The position numbers and the translations under genes are program-made. The notes beneath the pieces were generated by a model, which searched no databases, had not been told where the DNA came from, and saw only the letters and a list, made by a program, of their open reading frames with translations. Below are positions 4,863-59,809 of a stretch of DNA of 64,000 nucleotides, in pieces. Position 1 is the first letter of the stretch. Each line of letters begins with the position of its first letter. This DNA is from Candidatus Bathyarchaeota archaeon (lineage in GTDB: Archaea; Thermoproteota; Bathyarchaeia; Bathyarchaeales; Bathycorpusculaceae), in NCBI GenBank assembly GCA_963832745.1, contig CAWHVC010000002.1, positions 384,001 to 448,000 of the forward strand, given 5' to 3'.

Positions 4863-4959
4863 AGGTTTTGTTGGGTCTGGGAAGTGATTAAAGGGTTTTC
4901 GTAAACACTTCTTTACCTGCCCCAGTAAACAAACCTTGACTGCCACTAAAAAACTGTTT

Positions 4960-5040
4960 TTGGCTATAAAAATCGCCAATACCGACCTACCCCCCTACAG
5001 GTACACTGCATAGATTGAATATTAGACTGCAAATAGGTTT
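4960..5040 (-). repeat. partial copy (C) of the non-coding element
   Basis: TTGGC-N10-GCCAA hairpin, AATACCGACCTACCCCCCTACAGG, then GCATAGA...AATAGGTT matching 53535-53650. Confidence 0.7.
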
Positions 5041-5046
5041 GCTCAG

Positions 5047-5310: not shown

Positions 5311-5375
5311 GGTCGGTTTCAGCTCTTGCAGGTTTATCGCAACCTTGTTCTTTTCGCCTATTATTTGTTTGTACG

Positions 5376-5444
5376 CCTTGAGGATATGCTTGTGGGATAA
5401 AGCTTATATCTGCAAAACGTCTCCTTAAAGGATATCCTGAAGGA
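5376..5444. promoter_or_regulatory. candidate operator array in divergent promoter
   Basis: TCCTTAAAGGATATCCTGAAGGA (5422-5444, perfect AGGATATCCT core) and related CCTTGAGGATAT (5376-5387) on either side of a CTTATAT TATA-like box. Confidence 0.5.
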
Positions 5445-5462
5445 ATACAAAATGGTGATGGT

Positions 5463-5938
5463 ATGAAAAAACAAGAAACAACCCAACCCCCCAAAACACC
5501 AAACCCAGCCGACAAACTCCCCGAACCCCTCAAAACCAACTTCAAACAATACGCATTCAACTGCTCCCCAGCAATTTACCAACTCAAGGCTGCAGCAGCG
5601 CTAAAGCTTTGGAAAGACCGCGGCTATCGAGACATAACGTTTGATGAACCCATGCCCTGTGGGGGCAAATCGGTTTTTGTCAAGGTACTGGTAAGAAAGG
5701 AAGACAACACCATGATTGGGGTGGAATGCGCATCAACCCTCAGACTACAGCGACTAACTGCTCGGATTGCGCTTCTTCGGGCCTGTCTGCCGCCAGACAG
5801 CTACATAATAATAGTTTTCCCAGAGACCGCAGGTGACAGAATAACGAAGGCAACCGACATTGTTGACGAAGTATGGGTAACAGGCAAAGACGGCACGGTA
5901 ACCAGTTGATGTTTAGGTCTGCTTTTTACGAGGAATGA
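5463..5938 (+). CDS. hypothetical protein with degenerate PD-(D/E)xK-like fold; frameshift near 5901
   Basis: Paralog of 54230..54691 (ALKLW.DR, GVECAS, LLRACL..DSY.I.VFPETAG, DEVWVTGK). Adding one base near 5901 gives the tail QLMFRSAFYEE, matching the paralog tail QMLFASVLHLE. Confidence 0.75.
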
Positions 5939-5984
5939 TTACCTTAATGGTCGAGATAAGATTGTTACCAAGATTTTTCGCCAA

Positions 5985-6320
5985 TCAAACATAGGTATGC
6001 AAGTTTTTTGTATTTCCTGCTTTTTCTTTTGTTTCGAGGTAATGTTTTATTTCTTCCATTTTAAAGAAGCATTCTGTATGCATTCCGGACCCAATCCAAG
6101 GACGCTTCAAATCCCGAATAGTTTCGGCTATTCCTGCTGCTGGAATAATACCTGTCAATATAGCGCTCGTTAAACTTGATGTTTCACCAAACCAATTGGA
6201 GCGAGGAAGTTTATCTTTACAAACAAGACAGTGAGAAATGCAATTGTGGCAAAAATGTTTCCCCTTGTTTTCGGAAATAGTTTTAATGTGGTAATTTTTT
6301 CCACATCTTTCACATTTCAT
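5985..6320 (-). CDS. AT-rich hypothetical zinc-finger-like protein
   Basis: CERC, CHNC, CLVC and HTEC pairs; short hydrophobic stretch. Confidence 0.65.
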   Translation of the reverse strand: MKCERCGKNYHIKTISENKGKHFCHNCISHCLVCKDKLPRSNWFGETSSLTSAILTGIIPAAGIAETIRDLKRPWIGSGMHTECFFKMEEIKHYLETKEKAGNTKNLHTYV

Positions 6321-6517
6321 TTTCTAATGCCCAATAAAATATTTGATTTAAAATCTTTAAAATTATTGTCATGTTGCCCGTAGACTGTTTCTAAGGTTTT
6401 TAGTTTACAATTAAAGGATACTGAGAAACGTTTGAAGCATTTCTTGGTTGATTCATTCTCAGCCTATTGTTAATGCTTATATGCTTTTGGTTTTACTTTT
6501 TAGGTTAGGCTTTCAGT

Positions 6518-7936
6518 ATGACCAGTAAATCTTCGTCTATGTGCATTTTTAATACTTTGTCTCGCCAGAAAGAAGTTTTTACGCCGATTGAGGGTGGCGT
6601 GGTTAGGATGTATACTTGTGGTCCAACCGTTTATGATTATGCTCATATTGGTAATTTTCGGGCGTTTGTGTTTGAGGATTTGCTGAAACGTTGGCTGCGA
6701 TACCGCGGCTTCAAGGTCATGCACGTTATGAACCTCACAGACGTGGACGATAAAACTATCAAGGGCAGCCAAGCCAAAGGGATTCCGCTTAGGGAGTACA
6801 CGGATTTTTACGTTAAAGCCTTCTTTGAAGACATAGCCAAACTTAACATTGAACCCGCCGACGAGTACCCCCGTGCCACAGACACCATCCCTGAAATGGT
6901 CTGCAATCATCAAAACCTGCTGGAGAAGGGCGTGGCGTACCGTGGCGAAGACGGCTCTATCTATTATGCGGTTAGCAAGTTTCCAGAGTACGGCAAGCTG
7001 TCGCATTTGAAAGTTTGCGAACTCAAAGCCGGCGCACGCGTTAGCCAAGACGAGTACTGCAAAGAGGAAGCCCAAGACTTCGCCTTATGGAAAGCATGGA
7101 CTCCTGAAGACGGCGACGCCTACTGGATAACTGAACTCGGAAAAGGCAGACCCGGCTGGCACATCGAATGCTCCGCAATGAGCATGAAATATCTAGGCGA
7201 AACCTTTGACATTCACTGCGGAGGAATCGACAACATGTTCCCCCACCACGAAAACGAAATCGCACAATCTGAAGCCGCAACCGGCAAAACCTTCGTCAAC
7301 TATTGGATGCATAACGAGCATTTGCAGGTTGAAGGCAAAAAAATGACTAAACGCCTTGGCAACTTCTACACGTTGCGGGACTTGCTCGCGAAGGGTTATG
7401 ACCCAATCGCCATCCGTTACCTGCTCCTGTCAACGCATTATCGGCAACAATTCAACTTCACGTTTGAAGGCTTATGCTCCGCCAAAAGCGCAGTTGACCG
7501 CCTCAAAAACTTTGTCCGCCGACTCCACGACGCCAACGGCACCGGCAGCGACGGCAAAGTCCAAATGCAAATCAGTCACGTGAAAGAATGCTTCGGCGGC
7601 GCCATGGATGACGACTTAAACATCAGCGTCGCGCTTGCATCCCTATTCGACTTTGTGCGGGAAATCAATAACCTGCTTGACGCGGGCTTAGTCAGCAAAG
7701 ATGAGGCGGCTGAGCTTAGCGATGTAATGGCGGGATTTGATAGTGTGCTTGGAGTCATCGGCAAGGTGGAAGCGGAAGAAGCATTGCCCAGCAACATCGA
7801 CGAACTCGTGCAGAAGCGTGAAGCTGCCCGTAAAGCCAAAAACTGGAAAGAAGCCGACCAAATCCGCGCCCAACTCAAAGCCATGGGCATCGTGGTTGAA
7901 GACACCGCGCAGGGCGTCCGTTGGCACAAAGAATAA
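6518..7936 (+). CDS. cysS: cysteine--tRNA ligase
   Basis: [37 protein letters not shown]-like KMTKR. Confidence 0.97.
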
Positions 7937-14122: not shown

Positions 14123-15181
14123 TTGGGCAGCGTTAAAGATTTACAAGTAATAAAACCCGCTACCCCCGAAGCGATGGGTGTCGGTAGGTTTGATTTTTCT
14201 GACCGTTTTAGCGTTTTTGATTGGGGCGAAATGCCTGACCATATCGTCGGCAAAGGCGCCGCGCTCGCAGTTATGGGGGCTTACTGTTTTGAGCAACTTG
14301 AACGCGTCGGCGTACACACACATTACCGCGGACTCATTGACGAGTCAGGAGAAGCAATGCGGGTTGGCGAGTTAAAAGACCCCTCAAACATCATGGAAGT
14401 CTCACTCGTAAACGTCTACCACCCAAAAATTACCACAGACGCCGGAAAAATCACACGAGACTACAGCATGTACACGCCAGACCTCAAAAACTGCCTAATC
14501 CCCCTCGAAATCATTTACCGCAACGGCTTACCCGAAGGGTCTTCCGTCTTCAAACGCCTCGCACAAGGCAAAGTCACACTCCAAGACCTCGGCTTAGACC
14601 ACCAGCCAAAACCTGGCGAAACCCTAGAGAAACCCATTTTTGACGTAAGCACCAAACTCGAAGAAACCGACCGCTACATCACATGGCAGGAAGCCCAACA
14701 AATCAGTTGCCTAAGCGACTCGGAACTTGCTGAAGTTAAAGTGGTGCTTCTAAAGGCTGATGAAGTCATTTCAAAGGCAGCCAAGAACGCTGAGTTGAAA
14801 AATGAGGATGGCAAAATCGAATTGTCCTTTGATGAGAAACGCAAACTTATGGTTGTAGACGTCGTTGGCACACTTGATGAATGCCGCTTCACTTACGGCG
14901 GTGTGCATGTCAGCAAAGAGGTTGCCCGCCAATTCTACAAGAAAACACAATGGTACACTGACTTGGAAGAAGCCAAAAAACAAGCTGAAACCCAAGGCGT
15001 CAAAGAATGGAAGACCCTTTGCAAGTCACAACCGCCCCGACTTGACCCAACACTTAAACGCGTTATCAGCGAAATGTACATGTCAGTTGCTAACGAGGTG
15101 ACTGGTCTTGGCTTGTTTGATTCGCCAAGGCTTTGTGACGTTATTAATGAGTATAAAGATTACATGAGTGAAAAAGCATGA
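14123..15181 (+). CDS. purC: SAICAR synthase
   Basis: MGSVKD, FSDRFSVFDWG, STKLEETDR, DGKIE, GTLDECRF. Confidence 0.95.
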   Translation: MGSVKDLQVIKPATPEAMGVGRFDFSDRFSVFDWGEMPDHIVGKGAALAVMGAYCFEQLERVGVHTHYRGLIDESGEAMRVGELKDPSNIMEVSLVNVYHPKITTDAGKITRDYSMYTPDLKNCLIPLEIIYRNGLPEGSSVFKRLAQGKVTLQDLGLDHQPKPGETLEKPIFDVSTKLEETDRYITWQEAQQISCLSDSELAEVKVVLLKADEVISKAAKNAELKNEDGKIELSFDEKRKLMVVDVVGTLDECRFTYGGVHVSKEVARQFYKKTQWYTDLEEAKKQAETQGVKEWKTLCKSQPPRLDPTLKRVISEMYMSVANEVTGLGLFDSPRLCDVINEYKDYMSEKA

Positions 15182-16278
15182 GCATGCAAAAACAGATTCA
15201 GCAGGTTATTGCGGGTTACGACCCTGAGAAGGTGCATATCGGCGTTTTAGGCAGCCACTCCGCCCTTGAAATCGCCGCCGGCGCCAAACAGGAAGGATTT
15301 AAAACCGTCGTCGTATGCCAAAACGGGCGCGAGAAAACATACGCCCGCTACTACCGCAACATTTTCGACAAATTCATCTTCCTCGACCGATTCCAAGACA
15401 TAACACGCCCCGAAACCGTCAAAGAACTCGCCGACCTAAACACCGTTTTCGTGCCCAACCGTTCGTTTAGCGTGTACGCCGGTTACCAGGCAATAGAACA
15501 AAAATTCGCCGTGCCCCTGATGGGAAACCGGTATCTGCTCAAAACTGAAGAACGCACAGCCCCAAGGAACCAGCTTTGGCTCCTAAAAGAAGCAGGCATA
15601 GAGTTGCCCCGCGCTATCAAGACGCCCCAAGAAATCGATTGTCCCACAATCATCAAAGTCCCAGAAAAAGGCCGCAGCATTGAACGCGCCTTCTTCTACG
15701 CATCCACTTACGAGGAGTACAAGCGGGAAGCACAAAAACGCCTCGATGCAGGCATAATCACTCAAGAAGCACTTGACCAAGCCATTATCGAGGAATACGT
15801 GATTGGCGCCAAATTCAACGCAAACTACTTCTACTCACCCCTAAACGACGACATCGACCTACTCGGTTTTGACAGGCGCATCCAAACCGACCTCGACGGC
15901 GTTCTTGACCTACCAGCACAGGAACAGCTTGAACTAAACATTCCCACACAAAACATTGAAATCGGCCACATGGGCGTAACTATGCGTGAAAGCCAACTGG
16001 AAAAAATCTTTGAAGCAGCTGAAAAATTCGTTCGTGTCTGCGCTAAAGAGTACCCGCCCGGCATGATAGGTCTGTTTGCGCTTCAAGGCGCGGTTACCAA
16101 GGATTTGCAGTTCCGCGTTTTCGACGTAAGCCCCCGTGTCCCCGGTTGTCCATGCGTTGAACCAACCTCGCCCTACATGAAATATAAGTACGGTACCGAA
16201 GTTGGTCCAGGCAAACGTGTTGCGATGGAAATCAAACGGGCGCTTCGCAAAGGCAGATTGTCTGATGTGGTTACATGA
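15178..16278 (+). CDS. purP: PurP / PurP-like ATP-grasp (formate--AICAR ligase family), copy 1
   Basis: GSHSALEI.GAKQEGF, PNRSF, IEEYVIG, GLFALQG; ATGA overlap with purC. Confidence 0.88.
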   Translation: MSMQKQIQQVIAGYDPEKVHIGVLGSHSALEIAAGAKQEGFKTVVVCQNGREKTYARYYRNIFDKFIFLDRFQDITRPETVKELADLNTVFVPNRSFSVYAGYQAIEQKFAVPLMGNRYLLKTEERTAPRNQLWLLKEAGIELPRAIKTPQEIDCPTIIKVPEKGRSIERAFFYASTYEEYKREAQKRLDAGIITQEALDQAIIEEYVIGAKFNANYFYSPLNDDIDLLGFDRRIQTDLDGVLDLPAQEQLELNIPTQNIEIGHMGVTMRESQLEKIFEAAEKFVRVCAKEYPPGMIGLFALQGAVTKDLQFRVFDVSPRVPGCPCVEPTSPYMKYKYGTEVGPGKRVAMEIKRALRKGRLSDVVT

Positions 16279-17360
16279 TAGAAGCCCAAGACGTCCAAAA
16301 GATTCTTGACAAGTATGACCAATCCAAACTTGCAATCGGCACCTTGGGCTCCCACAGTTCTCTTAACATTTTTAAGGGCGCCAAAGAAGAAGGCTTCCGC
16401 ACCGTTTGTATCTGTAAAGAAAAAGACGCCATAATGTACCAGAAATACCCAGTCGTCGACGAACTCATCATTGTTAAAGATTTTACGGAGTTGCTAAATG
16501 AGAAGCTGCAGGAACGTTTACGAGCGCTTAACGTGGTTTTGATTCCTCATGGCTCCTTCACTGCTTACCTGAGCACTGAGCAACTTACCGATAACCTGAA
16601 AGTGCCCATGATGGGAAACCGCCAGCTGCTCCATTGGGAAGCCAACCGGAAAAGCCAAGAAGAATGGCTACGCCAAGCAGGATTACGGTTGCCCGCCACT
16701 TTTCAGTCGCCAGACGAAATTGACCGTCTCGTCATTGCCAAACTGCAAGGTGCCAAAGGCGGCAGAGGCTATTTCCTTGCCAACTCACCAAAAGGCTTCT
16801 ACAAAAAAGCTGAAGAAATGATAAAACGTGGCTTAATCACCCCACAAGACGTAGCTACCGTTCACCTGCAAGAGTACGCGTTGGGCGTTAACGTTTACCC
16901 CAGCTACTTTAGCAGCATAATTAACAACGACGTTGAAATGCTTGCGATGGACCGTCGTTATGAATCCGCCGTTGACTCCATCGGCAAAATCCCCGCTGCT
17001 GAACAACTTGAAATTGACGTTGCCCCAACTTACACCGTCGTAGGCAACTTCCCCATAGTCCTACGCGAATCCTTACTGCCAGAAATTATGCGAATGGGTG
17101 AAGCAGTCCATAAAAAAGCAGCTGAACTCGCCCCACCCGGAATCATCGGACCCTTCTGCCTTGAAACAGTCATCACTGATGACCTTAAAATCTACACGTT
17201 TGAAATCTCAGCACGCATCGTTGCAGGCACTAACGTTGGCATCGGCACGTCACCTTACGCTTACTTGCGATATGGCGAGAACATGTACATGGGCAGACGT
17301 ATTGCGTTGGAACTAAAAAATGCGGTTAAGCAGAAACGGCTACACGAAGTAGTAGCATAA
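16275..17360 (+). CDS. purP: formate--AICAR ligase PurP, copy 2
   Basis: GSHSSLNI, PHGSF, GAKGGRGYF, DRRYES, GPFCLE, FEISARIVAGTN. Confidence 0.92.
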   Translation: MIEAQDVQKILDKYDQSKLAIGTLGSHSSLNIFKGAKEEGFRTVCICKEKDAIMYQKYPVVDELIIVKDFTELLNEKLQERLRALNVVLIPHGSFTAYLSTEQLTDNLKVPMMGNRQLLHWEANRKSQEEWLRQAGLRLPATFQSPDEIDRLVIAKLQGAKGGRGYFLANSPKGFYKKAEEMIKRGLITPQDVATVHLQEYALGVNVYPSYFSSIINNDVEMLAMDRRYESAVDSIGKIPAAEQLEIDVAPTYTVVGNFPIVLRESLLPEIMRMGEAVHKKAAELAPPGIIGPFCLETVITDDLKIYTFEISARIVAGTNVGIGTSPYAYLRYGENMYMGRRIALELKNAVKQKRLHEVVA

Positions 17361-29485: not shown

Positions 29486-29752
29486 TTGTCAGTTAACAAA
29501 AGAAGACTAATCCGCAAATGCCTTCTTGTACTAGCTGTCCTCACATCGGTAACAGTAGAACTGGCAATACTGTTAACGTTCCTAAACATGTACCGCTTAA
29601 TCGCAATAGAGCTGTACTGGACAGGGCTAATCGTGTTGCTTGCTGCATTTTTTGTTTCCATCCACATTCTGCAGACGGTTGCTGAAGTCAAATGCGAACG
29701 ATATGATAACCAATTAAAAACGTCAACAACAATTAGTTCAGAAAGCCCTTAG
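29486..29752 (+). CDS. small two-TM hypothetical protein
   Basis: 88 aa ORF with two hydrophobic helices. Confidence 0.5.
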   Translation: MSVNKRRLIRKCLLVLAVLTSVTVELAILLTFLNMYRLIAIELYWTGLIVLLAAFFVSIHILQTVAEVKCERYDNQLKTSTTISSESP

Positions 29753-29889
29753 GGGACCGGTGCTATTGGCGTTTTTCCAAACCAAAAACATGTTGAAGCC
29801 AACAGTATTGCTGAGCGTAAAGCTGGTAATGGGCAATTGCTTTTAAAAACCACCTGTACTTATATAGCCATTGAGGAATCAAGAACTTT

Positions 29890-51470: not shown

Positions 51471-53519
51471 TTGCCTAAAAAAGAATTTACAAGTTTCGAT
51501 GTTGCAGCTGCAGTTAAGGAACTTAAAGAGTCTGTTCTTGGTTCACGAGTGAATAATATTTATCAATTTGACCAAAAAACGGTTGTTTTTAAGCTTCATA
51601 AGACTAATTTGGCGTCGATTCGTCTTGTGGTTGAAGCGGGTCGAAGGCTTCATTCTACTGTTTATGCGGAGGAGAGTCCTTCTGAGCCGCCTCCTTTTTG
51701 TATGATGCTTCGTCAATACTTGCGTGATTCTTGGTTTGATAATATTGAGCAGTTTGAGTTTGAACGAATTGTTGTTTTGAGTTTTAGGACTAAAACTGGT
51801 TTGCTTCGGCTTGTTGTGGAATTGTTTGGGGATGGTAACATGATACTGGTTAATCCTGAGGGTGTGATTATTCAGGCGCTTTTTTTTAAACGTATGAGGG
51901 ACCGTAATATTTTGCATGGTGAAAAGTTTTTGTTTCCGCCTGCAATCGGGAAAAACCCGTTCAAGCTTTCTGAGGTTGAGTTGAAGATGGTGTTTGGGGA
52001 TTCGGGTGATGCTGAGGTTGTTCGTGTGCTTGCTCGTGGTGTTGGTTTGGGTGGTGTTTATGCTGAGGAGGTTTTGCTTAGGGCTGGTGTGGAGAAGACT
52101 GTGCATTGTAATGATTTGACTGTTGCTCAAGTTGCGGCTGTGTTTGGCGCGTTGGAGGGGTTGCTTTCTGTTTTGTCTTTGGGTAGGTTTGAGCCGTGTA
52201 TTGTTTTGGATGGGGATGAGTCTTATGTTGATGTTGTTCCTTTTCGTTTGCGGCGTTATGATGGTTTTGGGCGGAAAGATTTTGGGACGTTTAGTGAGGC
52301 TCTTGACGAGTTTTTTTTGAAGGTGAAGACGGCTGAGAAGGCGTTGGCGAGTGTTGAGGTTGACCGGTTGCAGGCTGAGGAGAAGCGGCTTAAACGGATG
52401 GTTGCTGATCAGGAGAAGGCTCAGGCGGATGATGATGCTAAGATGGAGCGGGATAGAACTGTTGGTAACACGATTTATGCGCATTTTGGTGAGTTGGAGG
52501 GTTTTGCGAATAAGCTTGTTGCTTTGAATCAGCGTGGTGTTGAGTGGAGTCAAGTTTTTGCTGGGGTGTTGGAGGATAAGCGTGCTGGTAAGGTTCCTGA
52601 GGTTTTTGTTGAGGGGATTGATGCTAAGAATGTGGCTGTGAACTTTTTTTTGGATGGTTTGCGGTTTAGTCTTAGTGTGCGTGAATCGATTTTTGATAAC
52701 GCGAATATGTATTATGAGCGTGGTAAACGTGCGAAGGCGAAGTCTGCGGGTACTGTGACGGCGCTTTTGGATTCTAAACGGAAGTTGGCGCGGGTGCAGC
52801 GGGAACTTGCGGAGGCTGAGCAGCTTAGGAGTATGAAGCCTGCGGAGATGCTTGAAGCGTTGGCGAAGCGTAAAATTGAAAGCAAGGAGTGGTTTGAGAA
52901 GTTTCGTTATTTTACTACGAGTGACGGGTTTTTGGTGGTTGCGGGCAAGGATGTGGTAACCAACGAAATCTTGGTCAAAAAGTACACGCAGCAAGAGGAT
53001 GTTGTGTTTCATGCGGAGATTACTGGTTCTCCGTTTGTGGTTGTTAAGGCGGAGGGGCGTGAAATCACTGACCAAGCCTTAAAAGAAGCCAGCGAATATG
53101 CGGCAGCTTTCTGTCGTGCTTGGCGTGAAAACGCTGGGTCGGCGGATGTGTATTGGGTTCGGGTTGACCAGCTTAGCAAGAGTGGGCCATCGGGCGAGTC
53201 GATTCCGCATGGCGCGTTTTTTGTGGTTGGGAAACGTAACTGGTTCCGTAATACGCCGTTGCGGTGTGCGGTTGGCGTGGTTGTTGGTGAAGAGGCGGAA
53301 TTTATTGGTGGTAGCGTGGATTCGGTGCGGGCGCGGGCGAAAGCGTTTGTGGTGTTGGTGCCGGGTGACTACAGCGGTAAGGACCTGCTTAAGATGGTGC
53401 TTAAAACCCTCACGCTTAAACTGTCTAAGGAGGATAAGGAGAAGCTGGGTAAAACATCGCTTGAAATGGTGCGGGAATTTATTCCGTACACCAAAGGGGC
53501 AATCAGCCAAAAACCCTGA
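51471..53519 (+). CDS. NFACT / Rqc2 (RqcH-like) ribosome quality-control protein
   Basis: FTSFDV, PPFCM.LR, ELFGDGN, GGVYAEE, WFEKFR.F..SDG.LV.AGKD...NE, SGE.I.HGAF.V.GKRN. Confidence 0.93.
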   Translation: MPKKEFTSFDVAAAVKELKESVLGSRVNNIYQFDQKTVVFKLHKTNLASIRLVVEAGRRLHSTVYAEESPSEPPPFCMMLRQYLRDSWFDNIEQFEFERIVVLSFRTKTGLLRLVVELFGDGNMILVNPEGVIIQALFFKRMRDRNILHGEKFLFPPAIGKNPFKLSEVELKMVFGDSGDAEVVRVLARGVGLGGVYAEEVLLRAGVEKTVHCNDLTVAQVAAVFGALEGLLSVLSLGRFEPCIVLDGDESYVDVVPFRLRRYDGFGRKDFGTFSEALDEFFLKVKTAEKALASVEVDRLQAEEKRLKRMVADQEKAQADDDAKMERDRTVGNTIYAHFGELEGFANKLVALNQRGVEWSQVFAGVLEDKRAGKVPEVFVEGIDAKNVAVNFFLDGLRFSLSVRESIFDNANMYYERGKRAKAKSAGTVTALLDSKRKLARVQRELAEAEQLRSMKPAEMLEALAKRKIESKEWFEKFRYFTTSDGFLVVAGKDVVTNEILVKKYTQQEDVVFHAEITGSPFVVVKAEGREITDQALKEASEYAAAFCRAWRENAGSADVYWVRVDQLSKSGPSGESIPHGAFFVVGKRNWFRNTPLRCAVGVVVGEEAEFIGGSVDSVRARAKAFVVLVPGDYSGKDLLKMVLKTLTLKLSKEDKEKLGKTSLEMVREFIPYTKGAISQKP

Positions 53520-53520
53520 A

Positions 53521-53821
53521 TTTCAACATACTAATGGCGCAGAAAAGCGCCAATACAGACCTACCCCCCTTAGCGTTTCCATAAAAGAGCTGAAAATATA
53601 GACCCCCTATAGGTTCCAGCATAGAACTGCTATTTGGATCCTAATAGGTTGGTATGAAAAATAAAGCACTGAAAAGCAGCAGACAGCAAAGACAGCACAA
53701 TGCACGTGGACACTAGCATGGCCCACAAATAGGACAAACAAACAATACCGCCCTAAACAAAACCCAAAACCCCAAACCAACCCTATAAACAATTTTCGCG
53801 TTAAAAAAGCCTTAAAATAAA
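53521..53821 (-). repeat. conserved non-coding element, copy B (possible structured RNA)
   Basis: Same four blocks as 3820-4041, plus a second C-string unit (53601-53650) matching 4991-5039; hairpin TGGCGC-N6-GCGCCA at 53535-53552. Confidence 0.8.
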
Positions 53822-53828
53822 GTGCATT

Positions 53829-54110
53829 TCAAAGAAGCTGTTCAATTTTGACTAAATAATCAGCAACTTGCCTGCCTTTCTCCGTCAACGAAACATCCAA
53901 TCTTCTGGTTCGCCTTTCAGGTGGCGACTGTTCAGTTAACCCGTTCTCGCTTAACAGTTTTAATGCTGAATATTTTGCGCCTTGGCTGCCTTGAACGTTG
54001 CTGAAAATTTCTGAGATTGAGGCTTTTTGTTTTTCCTTTAGGTAGACGATGATGCGGGGGGCGGTGGTTTGTTCAAGGATGGCAAGTTTTTCTTTGTTCA
54101 CGGGTTTCAC
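53829..54110 (-). CDS. small winged-helix DNA-binding protein
   Basis: RIIVYL...Y SALKLL.ENGL...SLTEKGRQVADYL; paralog of 5047..5310. Confidence 0.8.
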   Translation of the reverse strand: MKPVNKEKLAILEQTTAPRIIVYLKEKQKASISEIFSNVQGSQGAKYSALKLLSENGLTEQSPPERRTRRLDVSLTEKGRQVADYLVKIEQLL

Positions 54111-54119
54111 GTTATTGGT

Positions 54120-54228
54120 TATTGATTATCGTTAAGCAGTTTTTAAATTGATTTATAAATTATCGATTATCGATATTAAATAAATATATAAGCATGGGCT
54201 GTGTAATAGCGTATATCGAAAAACGATA
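54120..54228. promoter_or_regulatory. three 15-bp palindromic operator candidates around back-to-back TATA boxes
   Basis: TATTGATTATCGTTA (54120-54134), TATCGATTATCGATA (54161-54175), TATCGAAAAACGATA (54214-54228); TTTATAAA at 54152-54159 and TATATAAG at 54185-54192. Confidence 0.65.
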
Positions 54229-54229
54229 A

Positions 54230-54691
54230 GTGACGTGTTTGAAAATGGAAAGCCAACTAATATCCAAATTACCTGAAGAACTCAGGACAAAATACCTAAA
54301 ATACACACGAAAAAGCACACCAACAATTGAAACATTGAAGATTGCTACAGCCTTGAAGCTTTGGAATGACCGCAGCTTTAGAGACGTGCAGTTTGACGTG
54401 CCTTTAGTTTTTAGAGGCAGAACTGTTTTTGCTAAGGTTCTGGCGAAGAATGGGGATGGCGTCGTGTTTGGGGTTGAGTGTGCTTCGGTGGTTAGGTTGG
54501 GTTTGTTGCGTGCGCGGATTGAATTATTGCGGGCTTGTTTGCAGTCTGATAGTTATTTTATTGTTGTTTTCCCTGAAACCGCTGGAGAACGGGTTGATAA
54601 GGCAGTCAAGTTCGCTGATGAAGTATGGGTAACAGGTAAAAACGGTGTAGTGGCGCAGATGTTATTTGCATCAGTCTTGCATTTGGAATAA
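54230..54691 (+). CDS. hypothetical protein with degenerate PD-(D/E)xK-like fold
   Basis: Paralog of 5463..5938; likely start at ATG 54245. Confidence 0.8.
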   Translation: MTCLKMESQLISKLPEELRTKYLKYTRKSTPTIETLKIATALKLWNDRSFRDVQFDVPLVFRGRTVFAKVLAKNGDGVVFGVECASVVRLGLLRARIELLRACLQSDSYFIVVFPETAGERVDKAVKFADEVWVTGKNGVVAQMLFASVLHLE

Positions 54692-54840
54692 GCCCATGTC
54701 TGTTAGAATTTATTAATAATTTATGTCATGAAAGTAAAAAATCGTGCCTAAAAATAATTACAACTTCTAAAAAATGAAAAAATGAAAGTTTTTTTTGAAA
54801 AAATTTTATTAACAAAAAAGATGCTATATTAGCCAACCGA

Positions 54841-55887
54841 ATGGAAGTGCCGTTGGTTACGAGTAGTTTAGTCCTTAAGCCCTCAAAGGTTCTATGTTCA
54901 CTTGAAGATAACGAATTTGAGGAAATGATACATGATTGGCGTAGCACTTACAAAGGTAAATTGTATCAAAGAGTAGAATGGCTTGGAGGCAAAGGTGATG
55001 GCGGACGAGATGTTAAGTGCACTGGACTTAGTGATACTGAAATTACAATTTATCAATGCAAAAATTATGACAAAAAGTTAACCCCCTATTACATTTTCAA
55101 AGAAGTGGGCAAATGTTGTTATAACATTTTTAAGAAGGTTTATCCACTTCCAATAAAGTATCTGTTTATATCACCACATGGTGTCACCGCAGAAGTTACT
55201 GATTTATTTTCGAACCCTTTGAAACTCAAGGTCGATTTGAAAGCTGTATGGCCAAATACTTGTGAGACGCATATTCAAGCTTCCAGAATTCCATTAATCG
55301 GTGACTTTGAGAAGTTTATCGATAACTTTGATTTTTCAATTTTTAATTACGTAAGCCCCAATGAGTTTTTAGAAGATTTTGAAAATACGTGCTATTATTC
55401 AAAGTATTTTAAAATGATCAAAAAAGCGAGACCTCTTGGGCCATATGATGCACCTGAGCAATATGGAGAAAATGAGTTAGATTATATACAAAAATTATTA
55501 GCTGTGTACAAAGAATATTCTCAAGAAGAGATCGTTAATGAGGCTGTACTAAAAAGTCTAAAGCCTAAGTTATATGACGAATTTAAAAGACATCGATTTT
55601 ATTTCTATTCTGCAGATTGTTTAGCGGAATATTCAAGGGAAGTTTTTCCTCCAGAAATGCCTTGGTTTGAACACTGCAAAAAAGAGTTTTACTATGGAAT
55701 TATTGATGAGGTATCTGAGGATGCTGAACATGGTTACAGTCGTCTCAAAAAAGTAATCAAACGAGCCACAGATCTGGACATTAAATTAGGTGATGACCCC
55801 TCGGTTCGACTTAGAGTTCAGGATAAACGAGGTATGTGTCATCACTTGGCAAATGAAAGAGAGGATATTGTATGGACCAAGAAGTGA
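54841..55887 (+). CDS. ABC-three-component / Lamassu effector (Mrr-like nuclease plus C-terminal domain)
   Basis: EFEE...GGKGDGGRD...YQCK nuclease motifs; C-terminal FYSA..L...RGMCHHLANE..IVW. Confidence 0.8.
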   Translation: MEVPLVTSSLVLKPSKVLCSLEDNEFEEMIHDWRSTYKGKLYQRVEWLGGKGDGGRDVKCTGLSDTEITIYQCKNYDKKLTPYYIFKEVGKCCYNIFKKVYPLPIKYLFISPHGVTAEVTDLFSNPLKLKVDLKAVWPNTCETHIQASRIPLIGDFEKFIDNFDFSIFNYVSPNEFLEDFENTCYYSKYFKMIKKARPLGPYDAPEQYGENELDYIQKLLAVYKEYSQEEIVNEAVLKSLKPKLYDEFKRHRFYFYSADCLAEYSREVFPPEMPWFEHCKKEFYYGIIDEVSEDAEHGYSRLKKVIKRATDLDIKLGDDPSVRLRVQDKRGMCHHLANEREDIVWTKK

Positions 55888-56375
55888 ATAACTCTAAAAT
55901 GTCCATTTTTAACTCACCAATGGAAGTGGGTTTGAGGTTACTCTTCATCTTTTCAAAGACAACTGTTCCGCTTGATTTGCAGCGATTAATTCATTACAAT
56001 TACTTGTTGATTCATTCTGCAGATGCACCAGATGGTCCTGCTAGTATACATCCAGAACTTCCATTGCGATCTTGTGAAATGTTGGTCAATCGAACAATAC
56101 TAAAAAAGGGGTTAAACCTCTTATTGCTTAAGGGGCTTGTTTTTGTTAGTTACTCTGAGAAAGGTATTGTTTATTCTAAGAATGAATCGACGGATGATTT
56201 TGTTGGTTATTTTCAATCAGAATATTCCCAACGATTGAAAGAACGAGCAGAATGGTTATGCTTAACTTTCGATAAGCTAACAGACGGACAAGTAACTGAT
56301 TTAATTGAAAATAATCTAGGCAAATGGGGTACTGAATTTACTCCTACTCGTGATGAGGTCGATGAAGATGTCTGA
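55872..56375 (+). CDS. ABC-three-component middle component (LmuC-like)
   Basis: FNSP.EVGLR.L, LQRL..Y.YLL.HS.D...GP.S.HP..P.RS.E; overlaps both neighbours. Confidence 0.8.
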   Translation: MDQEVNNSKMSIFNSPMEVGLRLLFIFSKTTVPLDLQRLIHYNYLLIHSADAPDGPASIHPELPLRSCEMLVNRTILKKGLNLLLLKGLVFVSYSEKGIVYSKNESTDDFVGYFQSEYSQRLKERAEWLCLTFDKLTDGQVTDLIENNLGKWGTEFTPTRDEVDEDV

Positions 56376-58212
56376 GGGTATCTATTTTTCCAAAATATCT
56401 GTTCTTGGTCGCAATAAACCACCAGCGGAAATTAATTTAACTAAAGGATTAAATGTCATATATGGTCCATCCGATACTGGCAAATCGTACATTCTAGAAT
56501 GCCTAAATTATGTGTTGGGTGGGAAGGATGAACCAAAACACATTCCTCAATCGGAAGGGTATCAACGAATTCAAGCAGAGATACGCGTTTTTGAAGGAAA
56601 AACCCTAACGCTCTCTAGGCCTTTTAAAGATAATAAAATTTACTTGGCTGAGTGCTCATCTGAAGGCTTCGATAAAGCAGAGCCAATTCCACTATCGAGT
56701 AGACACAGTGAATTTACCGATAATGTTTCAATGTACCTTCTGTCTTTATTGAATTTGAATAAAAAAGTTATCAAAAGTTCAGTTTACAATGATAAGAAAA
56801 ACTTGAGTTTTAGAAGTCTTGCAAGATTATGTCTCATCAAGGAAGATCGGATAATAACCTTAAAATCGCCTATTTATGATGGCATTGTTACCGATGAATC
56901 AGAAAGCAAATCCACTTTCAAGTTATTATTAACAGGTCAGGATGACAAGGATTTGCCTAGTTTTGAGAATCCTGAACATGGAAAAAGCAGAATAAAGGGT
57001 AAGATTGACTTAATAAAAGCGGATATTGAAAAAAAGACTGGAGAATTAGCTGAATTTAGAAAAAAAGGCGAACAACTAAATAGTGAAGAGATAAATGTTC
57101 AAATTCATAAGTTATTGACAATTGTTGAAAACGCACATCGAGAGATATTGGCTCAAGAAAAAGAGCGTGCCGAAATATATTCTCAAATGAACCATCTCGA
57201 AGCTGTCTTAATCCAAAATGAGGAACTGAAAAAAAGGTTTGAACTCTTAGATAAGTCATATTCAACCGATTTAGATAGACTTGAATTTATCAACGAGGGT
57301 AAATCAGGTTTGGATCAGTTGGGTGATGTAACTTGCCCGCTTTGTGACACAGAGATTGACGGTCAGTTACTTGAACCACATGATGATATGGGCGTTAGTT
57401 TATTGCGTTCAATTAGAGCTGAATATACTAAAATTGCTCGAAAGAAATCAGACTTATCGAAAGCTTTAGCTGATGTTGACGAAAAAATAAGCTCTACCCA
57501 AACCTTAATTTCAGATAAAACTTTGCAATTTAAAAAAATTGATGAATACATTATAAATAAACTTAAACCTGTGCATACTGTGAACTCTAAAAATCTGGAT
57601 GAGTATATGCGGCTAAGAAGCAATAAGTCTAAAGCCGATTTAATTGAAGAGCAAATAGCTGATCTTAATATTTCCTTGAGACAATTTGATCGGGCGCTTG
57701 GACACATGCAGGAAAAAGCGCCACCTGTAGAAGTTCCAGTTGACTATTACTCAGAATTCTGCTCAAATATTCAGGAAATATTGGTTTCTTGGGGGATTAA
57801 TTCTGATGAAGTTGAGTTTAATTTAGGTACTAATGATATTATCATAAATGGAAAGAGCAGAGACCTTTTTGGGAAAGGTTATCGTGCGATTTTCTTTTCG
57901 GCTTTTATGATGGGTTTGCTTCAGCATTCTCTAAAGAGAAAAACAGGTCATCCTCGCTTTTTAATGCTTGATTCTCCACTTACAACTTTTAAGGGCAGGG
58001 ATAGCGGTTTAAAAGATTCTGATGAAGAGATTCCCCCTGAAATAATAAACCAGTTCTTTGAAGGTATTGCAAATTTGGATTATTTGCAAAGAATACAGGT
58101 TATCGTACTAGACAATCGTGAACCCCCCAATAGCGTGAAAGCAAGAATAAATCATATATTTTTCTCGAAGACTCATGAACCAAGTAGTCGTTATGGTTTT
58201 TTCCCAACATAA
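56368..58212 (+). CDS. Rad50/SMC-like ABC ATPase (LmuB-like, short type)
   Basis: Walker A GPSDTGKS, coiled coil with CPLC hook, degenerate signature FGKGYRA, Walker B FLMLDSP. Confidence 0.88.
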   Translation: MSEGIYFSKISVLGRNKPPAEINLTKGLNVIYGPSDTGKSYILECLNYVLGGKDEPKHIPQSEGYQRIQAEIRVFEGKTLTLSRPFKDNKIYLAECSSEGFDKAEPIPLSSRHSEFTDNVSMYLLSLLNLNKKVIKSSVYNDKKNLSFRSLARLCLIKEDRIITLKSPIYDGIVTDESESKSTFKLLLTGQDDKDLPSFENPEHGKSRIKGKIDLIKADIEKKTGELAEFRKKGEQLNSEEINVQIHKLLTIVENAHREILAQEKERAEIYSQMNHLEAVLIQNEELKKRFELLDKSYSTDLDRLEFINEGKSGLDQLGDVTCPLCDTEIDGQLLEPHDDMGVSLLRSIRAEYTKIARKKSDLSKALADVDEKISSTQTLISDKTLQFKKIDEYIINKLKPVHTVNSKNLDEYMRLRSNKSKADLIEEQIADLNISLRQFDRALGHMQEKAPPVEVPVDYYSEFCSNIQEILVSWGINSDEVEFNLGTNDIIINGKSRDLFGKGYRAIFFSAFMMGLLQHSLKRKTGHPRFLMLDSPLTTFKGRDSGLKDSDEEIPPEIINQFFEGIANLDYLQRIQVIVLDNREPPNSVKARINHIFFSKTHEPSSRYGFFPT

Positions 58213-58308
58213 CTTTTTGAGATCATACGTAGAAACCTGTTTTCTGGTAGGCGCTGATTATGGTTAAGTTTATTAGTGTTCTTTCTTAATTTTTGTTGGT
58301 GACTTGTT

Positions 58309-59076
58309 TTGAAGTGGCATTTTATAGTTTTGTTTTCGTTTTTGCTTATGTTGGGTTTAGTTAGTCCTGCTCTTGGAGAAATGATGCATGAAGGCATTGG
58401 CGTGACTGATGGTGATTCTTTTTCTTACAGTTACCTTTGCTATTTTGATTCTAATGATTCAGGTTTTAGTATGCCTGCGGATTTTTCTTGGATTAATCAA
58501 ACACAGTATTACATGATGAACGTGACTGGCGTTAGCGGGCAATCGGTCAATTATGATACACACATGTACTTCGACAACGGCACAAGCATTGCCGGCTACG
58601 GTTACATGAATATGCAGGATGGCGTTAACTCGATGATGCAGGGTTACAACCCGATGAGCGGCACCTATAACGGTAACTACTTCTTTATGCAGTCAAACGT
58701 TGGCATGATGGGCAGAATGTACCCTTCCAACACTAACAGTCCAACAGTAAACGACACAGTAACACGCAGTTACCCCGACGTCGAAAGAACCCTTAACCAC
58801 ATGTACTTTATCCTCAACCAAAACGGCGACATAAACCAAACCGACTACTACTTCGACCAAGCAACCGGCGCAATGGTAGAATGGAGAGAACAATACATCC
58901 AAACACACGGCAGCCTGCAAGCAAACAGCACACAAATCATGCAGTTAACCCAATCAACCGCTTGGACAGTACCCGAATTCCCAACACTAATCATTATACC
59001 ATTAATTTGTGCAGCAACCGCAGCAGCCATCTTGCTAAAAACAAAAAACAAAAACCTCCAAATAAAACTAAAATAA
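58309..59076 (+). CDS. secreted Met-rich protein with PEF-CTERM-like sorting signal
   Basis: Signal peptide; C-terminal VPEFPT, TM and Lys-rich tail. Confidence 0.78.
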   Translation: MKWHFIVLFSFLLMLGLVSPALGEMMHEGIGVTDGDSFSYSYLCYFDSNDSGFSMPADFSWINQTQYYMMNVTGVSGQSVNYDTHMYFDNGTSIAGYGYMNMQDGVNSMMQGYNPMSGTYNGNYFFMQSNVGMMGRMYPSNTNSPTVNDTVTRSYPDVERTLNHMYFILNQNGDINQTDYYFDQATGAMVEWREQYIQTHGSLQANSTQIMQLTQSTAWTVPEFPTLIIIPLICAATAAAILLKTKNKNLQIKLK

Positions 59077-59107
59077 AAAGCTAAAAAATTAGCCCTCATT
59101 CTTTTTC

Positions 59108-59554
59108 CTAAAGTATCTCGCCTAAATGAACAATTATCCCAAGCACAATTGAAACCGTCCAAATCACAAACGTGGGCAGCATCCAACGTTTCACCCGTCT
59201 ACAATTCATTTGATCAAGAGGCTTAAGGAACCAAGGAACAATACAGACAAAACCCATAACGTCGCCCGCAACTCCTAAAACAACTTTTAAGATGACAATT
59301 GTAAGCGGCAAAACAGCGAATTCTGCAATTTCTGGAGCAGCATCAATCAAAACAGGAATCATCACCGCAAATACTGTAACCATTTTTAAAACAAAACCAA
59401 ACATCGACAAGTAACCGTGTCTATGCAACGCTTTTTTTGCCCCCCTGCGTCCAATAACACCAATGGTAACCAGCACTAATGCGGCAATATTCACAATTAA
59501 ACTGACAGTTCCAAAATCAATATCCAAATAAGCACTCCCTGCCCAACTAAACAT
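59108..59554 (-). CDS. four-TM membrane protein (DUF420-like)
   Basis: Four hydrophobic helices, HG motif after TM1. Confidence 0.65.
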   Translation of the reverse strand: MFSWAGSAYLDIDFGTVSLIVNIAALVLVTIGVIGRRGAKKALHRHGYLSMFGFVLKMVTVFAVMIPVLIDAAPEIAEFAVLPLTIVILKVVLGVAGDVMGFVCIVPWFLKPLDQMNCRRVKRWMLPTFVIWTVSIVLGIIVHLGEIL

Positions 59555-59685
59555 GCCAAATTATTTATAAATTTCACCTCGCCTGCTAAACCAACACCGC
59601 AAAAACTGAACAAACGTTAAATAAAACTAAAAAAGCACCACTAAACCCTTCTCTTTATAGAGGTAGTTTAGTTCTGCAAGAGCAG

Positions 59686-59699
59686 AAAATGTTTAAATG
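59686..59699 (+). promoter_or_regulatory. BRE/TATA upstream of tRNA
   Basis: Purine-rich GAAAA followed by TTTAAATG about 40 nt before the mature tRNA 5' end. Confidence 0.5.
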
Positions 59700-59735
59700 T
59701 TTTCTGAGATAGCAGTATAGAGATAGTTAGTGTTT

Positions 59736-59809
59736 GGGCCCGTAGCTCAGCTCGGTGGAGCGCCAGACTCATAATCTGTTGGTCGCTGGTTCAAATCCGG
59801 CCGGGCCCA
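59736..59809 (+). tRNA. tRNA with CAT anticodon, most likely tRNA-Ile2 (agmatidine type)
   Basis: Cloverleaf: acceptor GGGCCCG/CGGGCCC+A, D stem GCTC/GAGC, loop CT-CAT-AA, T arm GCTGG TTCAAAT CCGGC. The GGGCCC acceptor is Ile-type; no intron, CCA not encoded; C27.U43 mismatch. Confidence 0.93.

Follow-up and report, generated by a model that had tools for sequence, protein, structure and literature searches.

What is the arrangement of non-coding blocks, a small winged-helix gene and a divergent gene for a nuclease-like protein that stands twice in this archaeal DNA? In the window, that is, the whole analysed stretch of 64,000 nucleotides, two loci share one layout: repeat blocks are combined with a winged-helix gene on the minus strand, palindromes resembling operators and a plus-strand gene for a protein of ~150 aa, here called FAM150. 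The original prediction regarded this layout as a single dispersed three-part element, possibly self-regulated, mobile or engaged in cargo capture. The best explanation, to which we give about an even chance of being correct, is a superposition of two entities: a toxin-antitoxin (TA)-like, self-repressed nuclease-fold module in defence islets, and separate MITE-like repeats.

Anatomy of the two window loci

The locus at the NFACT gene (copy B) starts with the repeat b1 (positions 53507–53580, plus strand), the 5′ end of which extends over the stop codon of NFACT. It is followed by b2 (53591–53672, plus strand), composed of a C-rich box and then two to four tandem units of ~11 nt, and by the non-coding b3 (53674–53826, minus strand). 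The winged-helix partner gene (53829–54110, minus strand) encodes 93 aa; it matches Pfam winged-helix families with E-values of 0.002–0.01, below the cut-off, and aligns with 12 partners of other loci. A divergent control region (54111–54229) with three 15-nt palindromic operator-like units (54120–54134, 54161–54175 and 54214–54228) leads to the FAM150 gene (54230–54691, plus strand), which encodes 150 aa of predicted PD-(D/E)xK fold and whose database form begins at the ATG at 54245. The cargo of copy B is a Lamassu (ABC-3C) operon (54841–58212, plus strand), consisting of LmuA (54841–55887), LmuC (55872–56375) and LmuB (56350–58212). These genes were identified by PADLOC with E-values of 5e-75, 2e-42 and 1e-143, respectively, and the operon matches CTD6, MC2 and AAA_23 in Pfam.

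The locus at the alkD-like gene (copy A) begins with a b1 repeat (3811–3884, plus strand) that overlaps the TAG stop of that gene and is orthologous in genomes G008 and G072, followed by a b3 member of the dispersed family (3893–4041, minus strand). The first blocks are separated from the winged-helix gene by an inserted gene for a 306-aa signal-peptide/transmembrane protein (4059–4979, minus strand), taken from the ORF listing and without a Pfam match, and by a second block of b1 tail and b2 (4955–5045, plus strand) that immediately precedes the winged-helix gene. For the 306-aa membrane or secreted protein, tblastn detected a family of at least 12 paralogs, several of them adjoining b repeats. 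The winged-helix gene of copy A (5047–5310, minus strand) encodes 87 aa and matches EarA and HTH_45 of Pfam below the cut-off. Its control region (5311–5462) contains inverted repeats within 5326–5451 that are unlike those of copy B. The FAM150 protein of copy A (5463–5909, plus strand) has 148 aa, its C-terminus being ~10 residues shorter than in relatives, and the cargo is a Zn-ribbon-like ORF of 111 aa (5985–6320, minus strand), also from the ORF listing.

Comparison of the two copies, with gene calls from a crude longest-ORF script, bore out most of the anatomy originally described. The ~150-aa genes are paralogs (56% identity over 130 residues, E 2e-54), and the ~90-aa winged-helix genes, both on the minus strand, show 32% identity over 81 residues (E 1e-11), with all of their Pfam winged-helix matches below cut-off. 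The non-coding stretches align as conserved blocks, palindromes are present in both divergent intergenic regions, and the DNA downstream differs as stated, with a complete Lamassu set at copy B. Integrase or transposase families, reported as missing, were found in none of the 57 window ORFs of at least 90 aa that were scanned, and tRNA-Met (59736–59809) is the sole Rfam match in the whole window. Two statements needed correction. The arrangement was said to start 1–7 bp past the stop of the upstream gene; the repeat consensus in fact overlaps the stops (TAG at 3810–3812 and TGA at 53517–53519). Both loci of the arrangement seen twice are real, but the genome holds eight loci and not two; with ~20 more in three other genomes of the same genus, the description of the module as dispersed was apt.

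Three dispersed repeat families

The genome contains ~101 copies of b1 (BLAST against the genome and iterated nhmmer) and ~127 of b2, which together with 23 of b3 form 144 clusters, two of which lie inside a crudely called ORF. The basic b1–b2 unit is ~105 nt long, and a genome search with a 17-nt core motif of the repeats gave 21 occurrences, versus 0 for a reversed control. For clusters that begin with b1 and have a same-strand gene upstream, the cluster lies within 30 nt of the stop of that gene in 33 of 53 cases. The b1 repeat contains a short hairpin-like inverted repeat. The hairpin was observed to lack covariation, with 315 of 495 cells paired versus 323.8 expected, and it was rejected as a constrained structure, there being no excess of pairing over column composition. 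An origin of the repeats from REP/RAYT or IS200/IS605 elements was also rejected: Y1 transposase (PF01797) is absent from all seven repeat-rich genomes (G000, which is the genome of the window, G008, G046, G056, G067, G072 and G075), TnpB was not found in G000, and the hairpin is unconstrained. Inspection by eye of 40 short copies and of filled versus empty sites revealed neither terminal inverted repeats nor target duplications.

The b3 family numbers 23 copies by nhmmer and 26 by model R1. Its minus strand combines a T-run with a box resembling an archaeal BRE/TATA element and with ~50 nt of conserved body, and this conserved box may be a promoter from which b3 is transcribed. Structured RNA was considered for b3 and rejected, since RNAalifold gave seven pairs, one of them with a compensatory change, and the hairpin is weak and of 5 bp. 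A small minus-strand ORF starting M-G-H-A-S was likewise rejected, its frame being broken by 1-nt indels among copies. The b3 repeat ends 16–56 nt from the stop of the partner gene in 14 of 26 loci, and its copies resemble one another more closely than do the FAM150 genes beside them (~70–87% versus 64–73% DNA identity). Because of this similarity and close spacing, which inherited linkage leaves unexplained, a functional connection of b3 to the module is hinted at.

Do the repeats and the genes form one element? Of 61 genomes of the genus, seven are rich in the core motif, and four of these seven have no FAM150; in G008, G046, G056 and G075, b1 and b2 are abundant and the 150-aa gene is missing. 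The gene pair, for its part, is present without b1 and b2 in G007 and in more distant Bathyarchaeia, and b3 was detected in 18 of the 61 genomes versus 6 of the 61 for FAM150. Because repeats and gene pair occur independently across genomes, an outcome named at the outset as refuting it, the single three-part element originally envisaged has to be given up; b1, b2 and b3 look like three independent dispersed families of MITE-like character. Breaks of synteny between species fall at the repeats. Comparison with relatives, proposed as a search for empty sites, revealed nested states. At site C3, G008 has a gene, b1, b2 and a methyltransferase, and G000 adds b3, a ribbon-helix-helix (RHH) gene, FAM150 and cargo. 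At site C5b, nothing is found in G008 and G067, b1–b2 in G072, and b1–b2–b3 and the pair in G000.

Fold, partners and descent of FAM150

The original statement that the element fits no named family was borne out. FAM150 has no family in Pfam (E up to 0.1, neither window copy matching), NCBIfam or PADLOC, and a profile search of PDB sequences returned nothing below E 0.59. The ESM Atlas gave a weak PDDEXK_3 lead (0.90). Database matches form 91 clusters, all unnamed, and those labelled are from Bathyarchaeia. No description of the family or of the b repeats was found in a limited full-text literature search.

The AF2 model of FAM150 has a pLDDT of 90.3. Foldseek matched it to XisH (Pfam PF08814; PDB 2okf and 2inb) at E ~2e-4 and TM 0.52–0.61, and VIA-align gave Z 9.7–8.1 to 3dnx, XisH (Z 9.3), AF1548, SdaI, NucS and Can2/Card1. 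Nearly all top matches of both programs are PD-(D/E)xK nucleases. With two aligners in agreement on this model, FAM150 is predicted to have a PD-(D/E)xK (restriction-endonuclease-like) fold, with its alpha-beta-beta-beta-alpha-beta core, that is nearest to XisH. Motif positions were assigned from the strands of the model and not by structural superposition; on this basis, none of 39 sequences in alignment A2 has the canonical (D/E)xK lysine, which is replaced by A, T, M or V, and the site of the beta-2 aspartate is occupied by K in 25 sequences, by D in 13 and by N in one. Of the 39 sequences, 37 retain E83. With its canonical catalytic residues absent, FAM150 is doubtful as an active nuclease. 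The invariant residues of the family are K37, K43, W45, R48, C84, D130 and E131, and the basic K37, K43 and R48 lie on one helix.

The partner fold is interchangeable, being winged helix, ribbon-helix-helix or AbrB/MazE-like. At the eight loci of this genome, four partners are of the winged-helix type, one is RHH-like, one AbrB/MazE-like and one unclassified, and one locus is without a partner. MazE_antitoxin and doc_partner scores of partner genes are below cut-off. For the model of the RHH-like partner, Foldseek found nothing at E up to 0.001; rows 1–7 and several lower ones are ribbon-helix-helix proteins at E 0.5 or worse. A second RHH gene, co-directional with FAM150 and overlapping it, was observed at 9 of 35 loci examined, and for this gene the Pfam model RHH_1 gives E-values of 4e-4 to 6e-4 (20.0 and 20.6 bits versus a cut-off of 20.5). 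In P0058, an RHH-like extension is fused to FAM150. The first search gave no fused forms of 357 aa or more, and an exhaustive representative search gave ~10 relatives of 277–389 aa with a C-terminal extension that looks helical by eye and has no Pfam match. Complex prediction for FAM150 and its winged-helix partner scored 0.00 versus a mark of 0.32, which speaks neither for nor against a complex. The winged-helix protein would be expected to bind the predicted palindromic operators, and the self-regulation originally proposed is plausible from these operator-like palindromes.

The gene pair is so far restricted to Bathyarchaeia, and 22 of 22 FAM150 loci found in species genomes are in Bathyarchaeia/Bathyarchaeota records. 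Of the eight loci in G000, two are broken and one is truncated, and degraded FAM150 copies are also present in G072. Paralogs share 55–62% protein identity. The FAM150 tree contains orthologous pairs, for which dN/dS is 0.14–0.26, and that of their partners is 0.014–0.23; between copy A and its G067 orthologs, FAM150 shows a dN/dS of 0.25, and the partner shows 95% identity and a dN/dS of 0.035. Because orthologs are under purifying selection and downstream synteny is kept, the pair is considered old and not recently mobile.

Variable slots, competing readings and known systems

Homology between orthologous modules stops 0–50 nt past the FAM150 stop, and the genes right after it differ between species at all five shared sites, comprising Lamassu, SIR2, AbiJ-like and PIN genes and unknowns; TIR genes are also among the neighbours of pair loci. 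The cargo place of copy A holds the 111-aa ORF here, a 558-aa ORF in G067 and an AbiJ-like gene in G072. The predicted variable borders with partly defence-type cargo are therefore real. For the predicted defence enrichment, PADLOC matches were found downstream at 7 of 26 loci when 53 of 117 downstream ORFs, those without a clear housekeeping Pfam match, were scanned, versus 9 of 81 proteins, mostly with generic domains, in control flanks; the enrichment is suggestive and statistically not established.

In the favored explanation, the small DNA-binding protein, transcribed divergently from FAM150, would bind the palindromic operators and in its bound state hold down both promoters. FAM150 would be the effector, binding or cutting nucleic acid once control lapses, and its action would favor retention of the locus and the neighbouring island, as in addiction or defence. 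The b1, b2 and b3 repeats would settle at gene 3′ ends and act as rearrangement breakpoints; b3, with its promoter-like box, is usually found immediately beyond the 3′ end of a convergently oriented gene, that of the module partner among them. The order b1–b2–b3–partner–FAM150–cargo, constant across ~20 loci in four genomes, would reflect inherited linkage and not a single mobile unit, with the pieces sharing permissive, fast-turning-over intergenic slots. The patchy distribution, multiple copies, decaying members and swapped partners argue for the TA-like part of this explanation. The position of the window partners, divergent and not that of an upstream co-transcribed antitoxin, argues against it, as do the small size of the partners, minimal DNA-binding domains that leave hardly any space for a tail to neutralise a toxin, the existence of a fused RHH–FAM150 form, odd for a toxin-antitoxin pair, and the missing catalytic residues.

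The same missing residues, the lysine in 39 of 39 sequences with the aspartate kept in 13 of 39, count against a stand-alone defence nuclease, type IV-like or nicking, that is gated by a divergent C-protein-like repressor and takes part in neither addiction nor recombination. Almost all fold matches are restriction or CRISPR-ancillary nucleases, the regulator is divergent and has operator repeats, and the loci lie in defence islets with Lamassu, SIR2, AbiJ-like, PIN and TIR genes, all of which would suit such an enzyme. A restriction enzyme would not usually be present as eight paralogs under different regulators within a single genome, however, and PADLOC gave no match to FAM150. No relatives were found on viral contigs, which is uninformative either way on interplay with phages. 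On balance, we regard this alternative as rather unlikely.

The loci may instead be paralogous transcription-factor pairs, in which FAM150 would be a non-catalytic co-regulator or sensor acting on host genes and the repeat and defence neighbourhood would be incidental. The loss of the catalytic motif, the invariant basic residues on one helix, the RHH–FAM150 fusion and operon, and purifying selection on the genes are consistent with this proposal. It is nonetheless unlikely, given the patchy distribution with copies often pseudogenised, the consistent position of the pair at variable slots and the lack of conserved target genes nearby.

In a third alternative, b3, partner and FAM150 would form a recombination site, an integron-like slot without a classical integrase, with FAM150 as an XisH-like accessory or nicking protein and cassettes swapped right after its own stop codon. 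XisH is among the closest solved folds, and the end of orthologous homology at the FAM150 stop, with different cargo at all five shared sites, is in line with such swapping. Relative to the "empty" C3 site of G008, the extra segment spans b3 to the end of the cargo; this junction, the one clean junction available, shows no recombination footprint and no direct repeat. In G008 and G067, b3 accompanies the cargo at the NFACT site, but both genomes have variable defence cargo there without FAM150. Because same-site cargo varies without the pair, the role in cargo capture that was originally proposed is not supported. Neither the window nor the surroundings of the modules contain a recombinase, G000 encoding its tyrosine recombinases at other places, and BLAST against the genome revealed no common repeat bounding the cargo genes. 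FAM150 has no Pfam XisH match, no XisI-like partner and no conserved catalytic residues, and ordinary homologous exchange via the conserved flanking genes would explain cargo turnover. Cargo exchange at a platform is thus improbable. Its most specific form is a real long shot: an integrase-free archaeal cassette-exchange site at which FAM150, guided by its partner, would bind or nick the slot edge or b3 and thereby turn the DNA behind its stop codon into a hotspot of defence-gene swapping, the eight paralogs representing eight independently addressed slots.

A single non-autonomous mobile unit, in which the whole b1–b2–b3–partner–FAM150 segment (~1.25 kb) would be mobilised in trans and b1–b2 would be deletion derivatives, is largely refuted and very improbable: its constant geometry and the 87.6% identity over 1274 nt of G000_C1 and G072a, a stretch beginning within b1, ending 47 nt beyond the FAM150 stop and having different upstream neighbours, are outweighed by independent distributions (b1–b2 without FAM150, and FAM150 without b1/b2), old paralogs and vertically inherited orthologs, a right end without a repeat block, and the lack of Y1 transposase in repeat-rich genomes and of TnpB in G000. 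Recent transposition of the whole unit was ruled out for G000_C1 and G072a themselves, as downstream synteny is kept (q5661–5978 = s4484–4802) and an upstream rearrangement at b1 explains the similarity. The suggestion of a mobile unit was thus not upheld; upstream breaks fall in the repeats.

What do these loci add? FAM150 is a previously unannotated protein family, and its module has hallmarks of toxin-antitoxin and defence-island modules, yet with a nuclease fold lacking the canonical active site and in a mostly divergent layout. The three MITE-like repeat families of Bathyarchaeia, for which the limited literature search found no earlier description, stand at synteny breakpoints between species and can aid assembly and annotation as well as studies of how plastic the genomes of uncultured archaea are. 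With its recurring place at the border of rapidly changing defence slots, the pair is a cheap marker for archaeal defence islets, and a new recombination mechanism might be uncovered from it, an idea that can be tested but is unlikely.

How do the loci compare with known systems? XisH is listed as the excision-controlling factor of the Anabaena fdxN element, in heterocyst-forming cyanobacteria, and is bacterial, mostly cyanobacterial (PMC3424549). Like XisH, FAM150 is a small stand-alone protein of PD-(D/E)xK fold (as modelled) and similar size beside rearranging or variable DNA. Unlike XisH, it is archaeal, has its own set of invariant residues and gives no sequence-profile match, and the 57 window ORFs scanned include no XisI partner or XisF-type recombinase near it. 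In contrast to an integron, there is no integrase in the window and the cargo is not bounded by a common repeat.

Type II toxin-antitoxin systems resemble the module in being small gene pairs with a conserved larger component and interchangeable small DNA-binding partners, multi-copy, patchy, prone to decay and located in defence islands; a subset of FAM150 loci also has the overlapping upstream RHH gene. They differ in that the window partners are divergent and a fused form exists. To our knowledge, the PD-(D/E)xK fold is not used by classical type II toxins. C-protein-regulated restriction genes likewise combine a small regulator and repeated palindromic operators with an adjoining restriction-fold gene; FAM150 loci, by contrast, have no methyltransferase, a catalytic motif that is not conserved and eight paralogs per genome.

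The b repeats share with MITE, REP and BIME elements their short, non-coding, intergenic nature, families of 100 copies, mosaic combinations, position at gene 3′ ends, decay from the consensus, role as rearrangement breakpoints and patchy occurrence among species. Unlike MITEs, they have no terminal inverted repeats or target duplications recognised by eye and no cognate Y1 or, in G000, TnpB; unlike REP/RAYT, the b1 hairpin is unconstrained and RAYT/Y1 is absent from 7 of 7 repeat-rich genomes; and the promoter-like box of b3 sets it apart from all three classes. Finally, the slots are comparable to defence-island hotspots, with conserved flanks (NFACT to tRNA-Met, and the gene upstream of cysS) and a different defence system in each species, namely Lamassu, a helicase pair, a DUF262-like gene or an AbiJ-like gene. 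Unlike known hotspots, these are archaeal, from Bathyarchaeia, and their edge is marked by a recurring pair of regulator and nuclease-fold protein together with repeat clusters.

Anatomy of the two loci

The two loci claimed in the original prediction were found to be present as described. Copy B follows an NFACT-like gene ending at 53519 and contains the conserved non-coding blocks b1 (53507–53580), b2 (53591–53672) and b3 (53674–53826), a 93-aa partner gene (53829–54110, minus strand), a 119-nt intergenic control region, and a 153-aa gene (54230–54691, plus strand) of a protein family here termed FAM150. Copy A follows an alkD-like gene ending at 3812 (Pfam DNA_alkylation, 3.8e-46) and contains b1 (3811–3884), b3 (3893–4041), a 306-aa membrane or secreted-protein gene absent from the original prediction (4059–4979, minus strand), a second b1-tail/b2 block (4955–5045), an 87-aa partner gene (5047–5310, minus strand) and a 148-aa FAM150 gene (5463–5909, plus strand). 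The b1 5' consensus overlaps the host stop codon in both copies. The two FAM150 proteins are 56% identical (E 2e-54) and the two partners 32% identical (E 1e-11), with both partners having winged-helix matches in Pfam, all sub-threshold. The control region of copy B contains three 15-nt palindromic units, and that of copy A contains inverted repeats unlike those of copy B, a difference that fits diverged DNA-binding specificities. For copy A the cargo, meaning the genes just after FAM150, is a Zn-ribbon-like ORF; for copy B it is a whole Lamassu operon.

In line with the original prediction, a Pfam scan of 57 window ORFs of at least 90 aa detected neither integrase nor transposase genes. Elsewhere the window carries housekeeping genes (thermosome, purine synthesis, EF-2, TBP, RadA and Lhr helicase); a tandem paralogous gene pair at 15178–17360, each member with DUF1246 and DUF1297, adjoins the SAICAR synthetase gene in the purine-synthesis cluster. 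A 510-aa open frame antisense to the 682-aa NFACT gene (51543–53075, minus strand) was taken to be its shadow ORF rather than a genuine gene. At least 12 paralogs of the 306-aa protein, which has a signal peptide/transmembrane segment, are encoded in the genome; several of them directly adjoin b1, b2 or b3, so this may be a second passenger that recurs at the repeat clusters.

Dispersed repeats and their linkage to the gene pair

The non-coding blocks belong to three families of dispersed repeats. In the 3.02-Mb genome a 17-nt core motif has 21 matches (reversed control, 0), and iterated nhmmer searches recovered 101 copies of b1, 127 of b2 and 23 of b3. These group into 144 clusters, most commonly b1-b2 (54), b2 alone (39) and b1 alone (19), with b1-b2-b3 contained in about a dozen. 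By crude longest-ORF gene calls only 2 of the 144 lie inside an ORF, and their orientation shows no strong bias relative to neighbouring genes. Clusters lie close to gene 3' ends: the median distance is 32 nt where the neighbouring gene faces the cluster with its 3' end and 115 nt where it does so with its 5' end. Among the 53 clusters that begin with b1 and have an upstream gene on the same strand, 33 lie within 30 nt of the stop of that gene. A solitary intergenic b1 copy (29752–29797) was observed between the two modules, before a beta-lactamase-fold gene at 29890.

The basic repeat unit, about 105 nt, consists of the b1 hairpin region, one C-rich box and a b2 tail of two to four units of about 11 nt each; in longer forms the C-rich box is duplicated. 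Pairing in the b1 hairpin does not exceed that expected from column composition (315 of 495 cells paired, 323.8 expected), so the copies appear to have descended, with decay, from a master sequence and not to represent a constrained RNA. On its minus strand, b3 combines a T-run with a conserved BRE/TATA-like box of archaeal type, which may be a promoter, and with a body of about 50 nt that is also conserved; its predicted structure is limited to a weak 5-bp hairpin, and a coding role is excluded by one-nucleotide indels. Rfam gave no match in the repeat blocks, all seven repeat-rich genomes lack a Y1 transposase, and TnpB is absent from the genome of the window (G000).

In G000, b3 lies within 2.5 kb upstream of FAM150 at all eight loci, at about 450–700 nt in seven and about 1.4 kb in copy A, with the 306-aa gene in between. 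Within the same distance b3 was present at 21 of 26 FAM150 loci drawn from five genomes, and at 14 its end is 16–56 nt from the partner stop codon. Across 61 genomes of the genus, FAM150 was found in six (G000, G005 as a fragment, G007, G067, G069 and G072), b3 in 18, and abundant b1/b2 core motifs in seven (G000, 41; G008, 69; G046, 61; G056, 17; G067, 125; G072, 76; G075, 56; controls, 0). G046, G008 and G075 contain b3 without FAM150 (14, 9 and 8 copies), G007 contains 18 copies of b3 without b1/b2, and at loci of more distant Bathyarchaeia the gene pair is retained and the repeats are mostly absent. The proposal of a single three-part element is refuted by these separate distributions, an outcome that the original prediction had itself named as refuting it.

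The FAM150 family and its partners

G000 has eight FAM150 loci, of which two are broken; copy A is short at the C-terminus. FAM150 has no match in Pfam, NCBIfam or PADLOC. A word-indexed database search yielded 91 clusters, all "hypothetical" and, where labelled, from Bathyarchaeia; an exhaustive representative search yielded 57 representatives, about 10 of them 277–389 aa long with a C-terminal extension lacking a Pfam match. Scanning one genome per species gave 22 loci, all in Bathyarchaeia/Bathyarchaeota records, and none was found on viral contigs. The AlphaFold model from 39 sequences is confident (pLDDT 90.3). Its top Foldseek matches are XisH (2okf, 2inb) and Card1 (E about 2e-4), and a Foldseek-independent aligner returned 3dnx (Z 9.7), XisH (9.3), AF1548 (9.0), SdaI (8.8), NucS (8.3) and Can2/Card1 (about 8), nearly all matches being PD-(D/E)xK nucleases. 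The predicted nuclease likeness is thus borne out for the fold, but the canonical motif is not retained: the lysine position holds K in 0 of 39 sequences, and the beta-2 aspartate position holds K in 25 and D in 13. Residues K37, K43, W45, R48, C84, D130 and E131 are invariant.

The divergent partners at the eight G000 loci comprise winged-helix proteins (four), a 55-aa ribbon-helix-helix (RHH)-like protein (one), an AbrB/MazE-like protein (one, with sub-threshold MazE and doc-partner matches) and an unclassified 65-aa protein (one), with no partner at the pseudogene locus; partner type is swapped among FAM150 loci. The model of the 55-aa partner has an extended N-terminus and two helices, and RHH proteins fill its Foldseek rows 1–7 and several rows further down, but at E 0.5 or worse. 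RHH-type loci contain a second RHH gene on the FAM150 strand, overlapping the FAM150 start. This co-directional gene was seen at 9 of 35 examined loci, and two of the nine have no other RHH; two of its products scored 20.0 and 20.6 bits against Pfam RHH_1 (cut-off 20.5), and the database protein P0058 has an RHH-kind domain fused to FAM150. One example lies at 7426–7617 (minus strand) of locus record L117, with equivalents in L115, L167, L169, L171 and L172; both window copies lack it. Ortholog dN/dS values of 0.14–0.26 for FAM150 and 0.014–0.23 for partners indicate that both genes are functional.

Site comparison and the nature of the module

The b1-b2-b3 series at the NFACT site is orthologous in G000, G067, G008 and G072, and the DNA from b3 to tRNA-Met varies: G000 has the pair and Lamassu, G067 a reversed Lamassu-like set, G008 an 898-aa helicase and a 311-aa protein, and G072 a degraded FAM150 and a 592-aa ORF. 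The whole NFACT–tRNA-Met interval (53520–59735 in the window) is a defence slot whose contents differ in each of the four species. At site C3, G008 has a gene, b1, b2 and a methyltransferase; G000 has b3-RHH-FAM150-ORF-PIN added at a point empty in G008, and G072 an additional gene and SIR2. At site C5b the repeat is absent from G008 and G067, G072 has b1-b2, and G000 has b1-b2-b3 and the pair.

The genes right after FAM150 differ between species at all five sites common to at least two genomes, and in orthologous modules homology stops 0–50 nt past the FAM150 stop and returns at conserved downstream genes. PADLOC matches were found within 4.5 kb downstream at 7 of 26 loci (53 of 117 downstream ORFs scanned): Lamassu; SIR2; AbiJ-like PDC-S32; HNH; a PDC-S09/S01/S35 group with TIR; an LmuB-like ATPase; and a methylase with a PLD nuclease. 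Control flanks gave matches for 9 of 81 proteins, chiefly generic domains, and clear defence genes at two loci. Defence-gene enrichment downstream of FAM150 is suggestive only.

Upstream homology stops within b1/b2 at copy A and at sites C1 and C5a, and these repeats are thus breakpoints of rearrangement. At the alkD/cysS site, in a comparison of window positions 3234–7936 with locus records L081–L088, the two genes are adjacent in G000 and in G008, where the order in G008 is alkD-b1-b2-670 nt-cysS; in G067 and G072 the module has stayed upstream of cysS, but alkD is inverted and 30–40 kb distant, and b repeats lie at these breakpoints. In the FAM150 tree, orthologous pairs between genomes are well supported and deep paralogs are unresolved. 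The C1 copy of G000 and its G072 counterpart (G072a) resemble a transposed copy in appearance only, downstream synteny being retained. Together with the orthologous pairs, this synteny shows that the module is old and vertically kept, without recent mobility.

A cargo-platform role, as originally proposed, is possible but unsupported, because the NFACT slot turns over even without the pair and no recombinase lies nearby. The best-supported reading is that of a nuclease-fold module that represses itself, resembles a toxin-antitoxin system and borders variable islets, alongside MITE-like repeats that spread independently.
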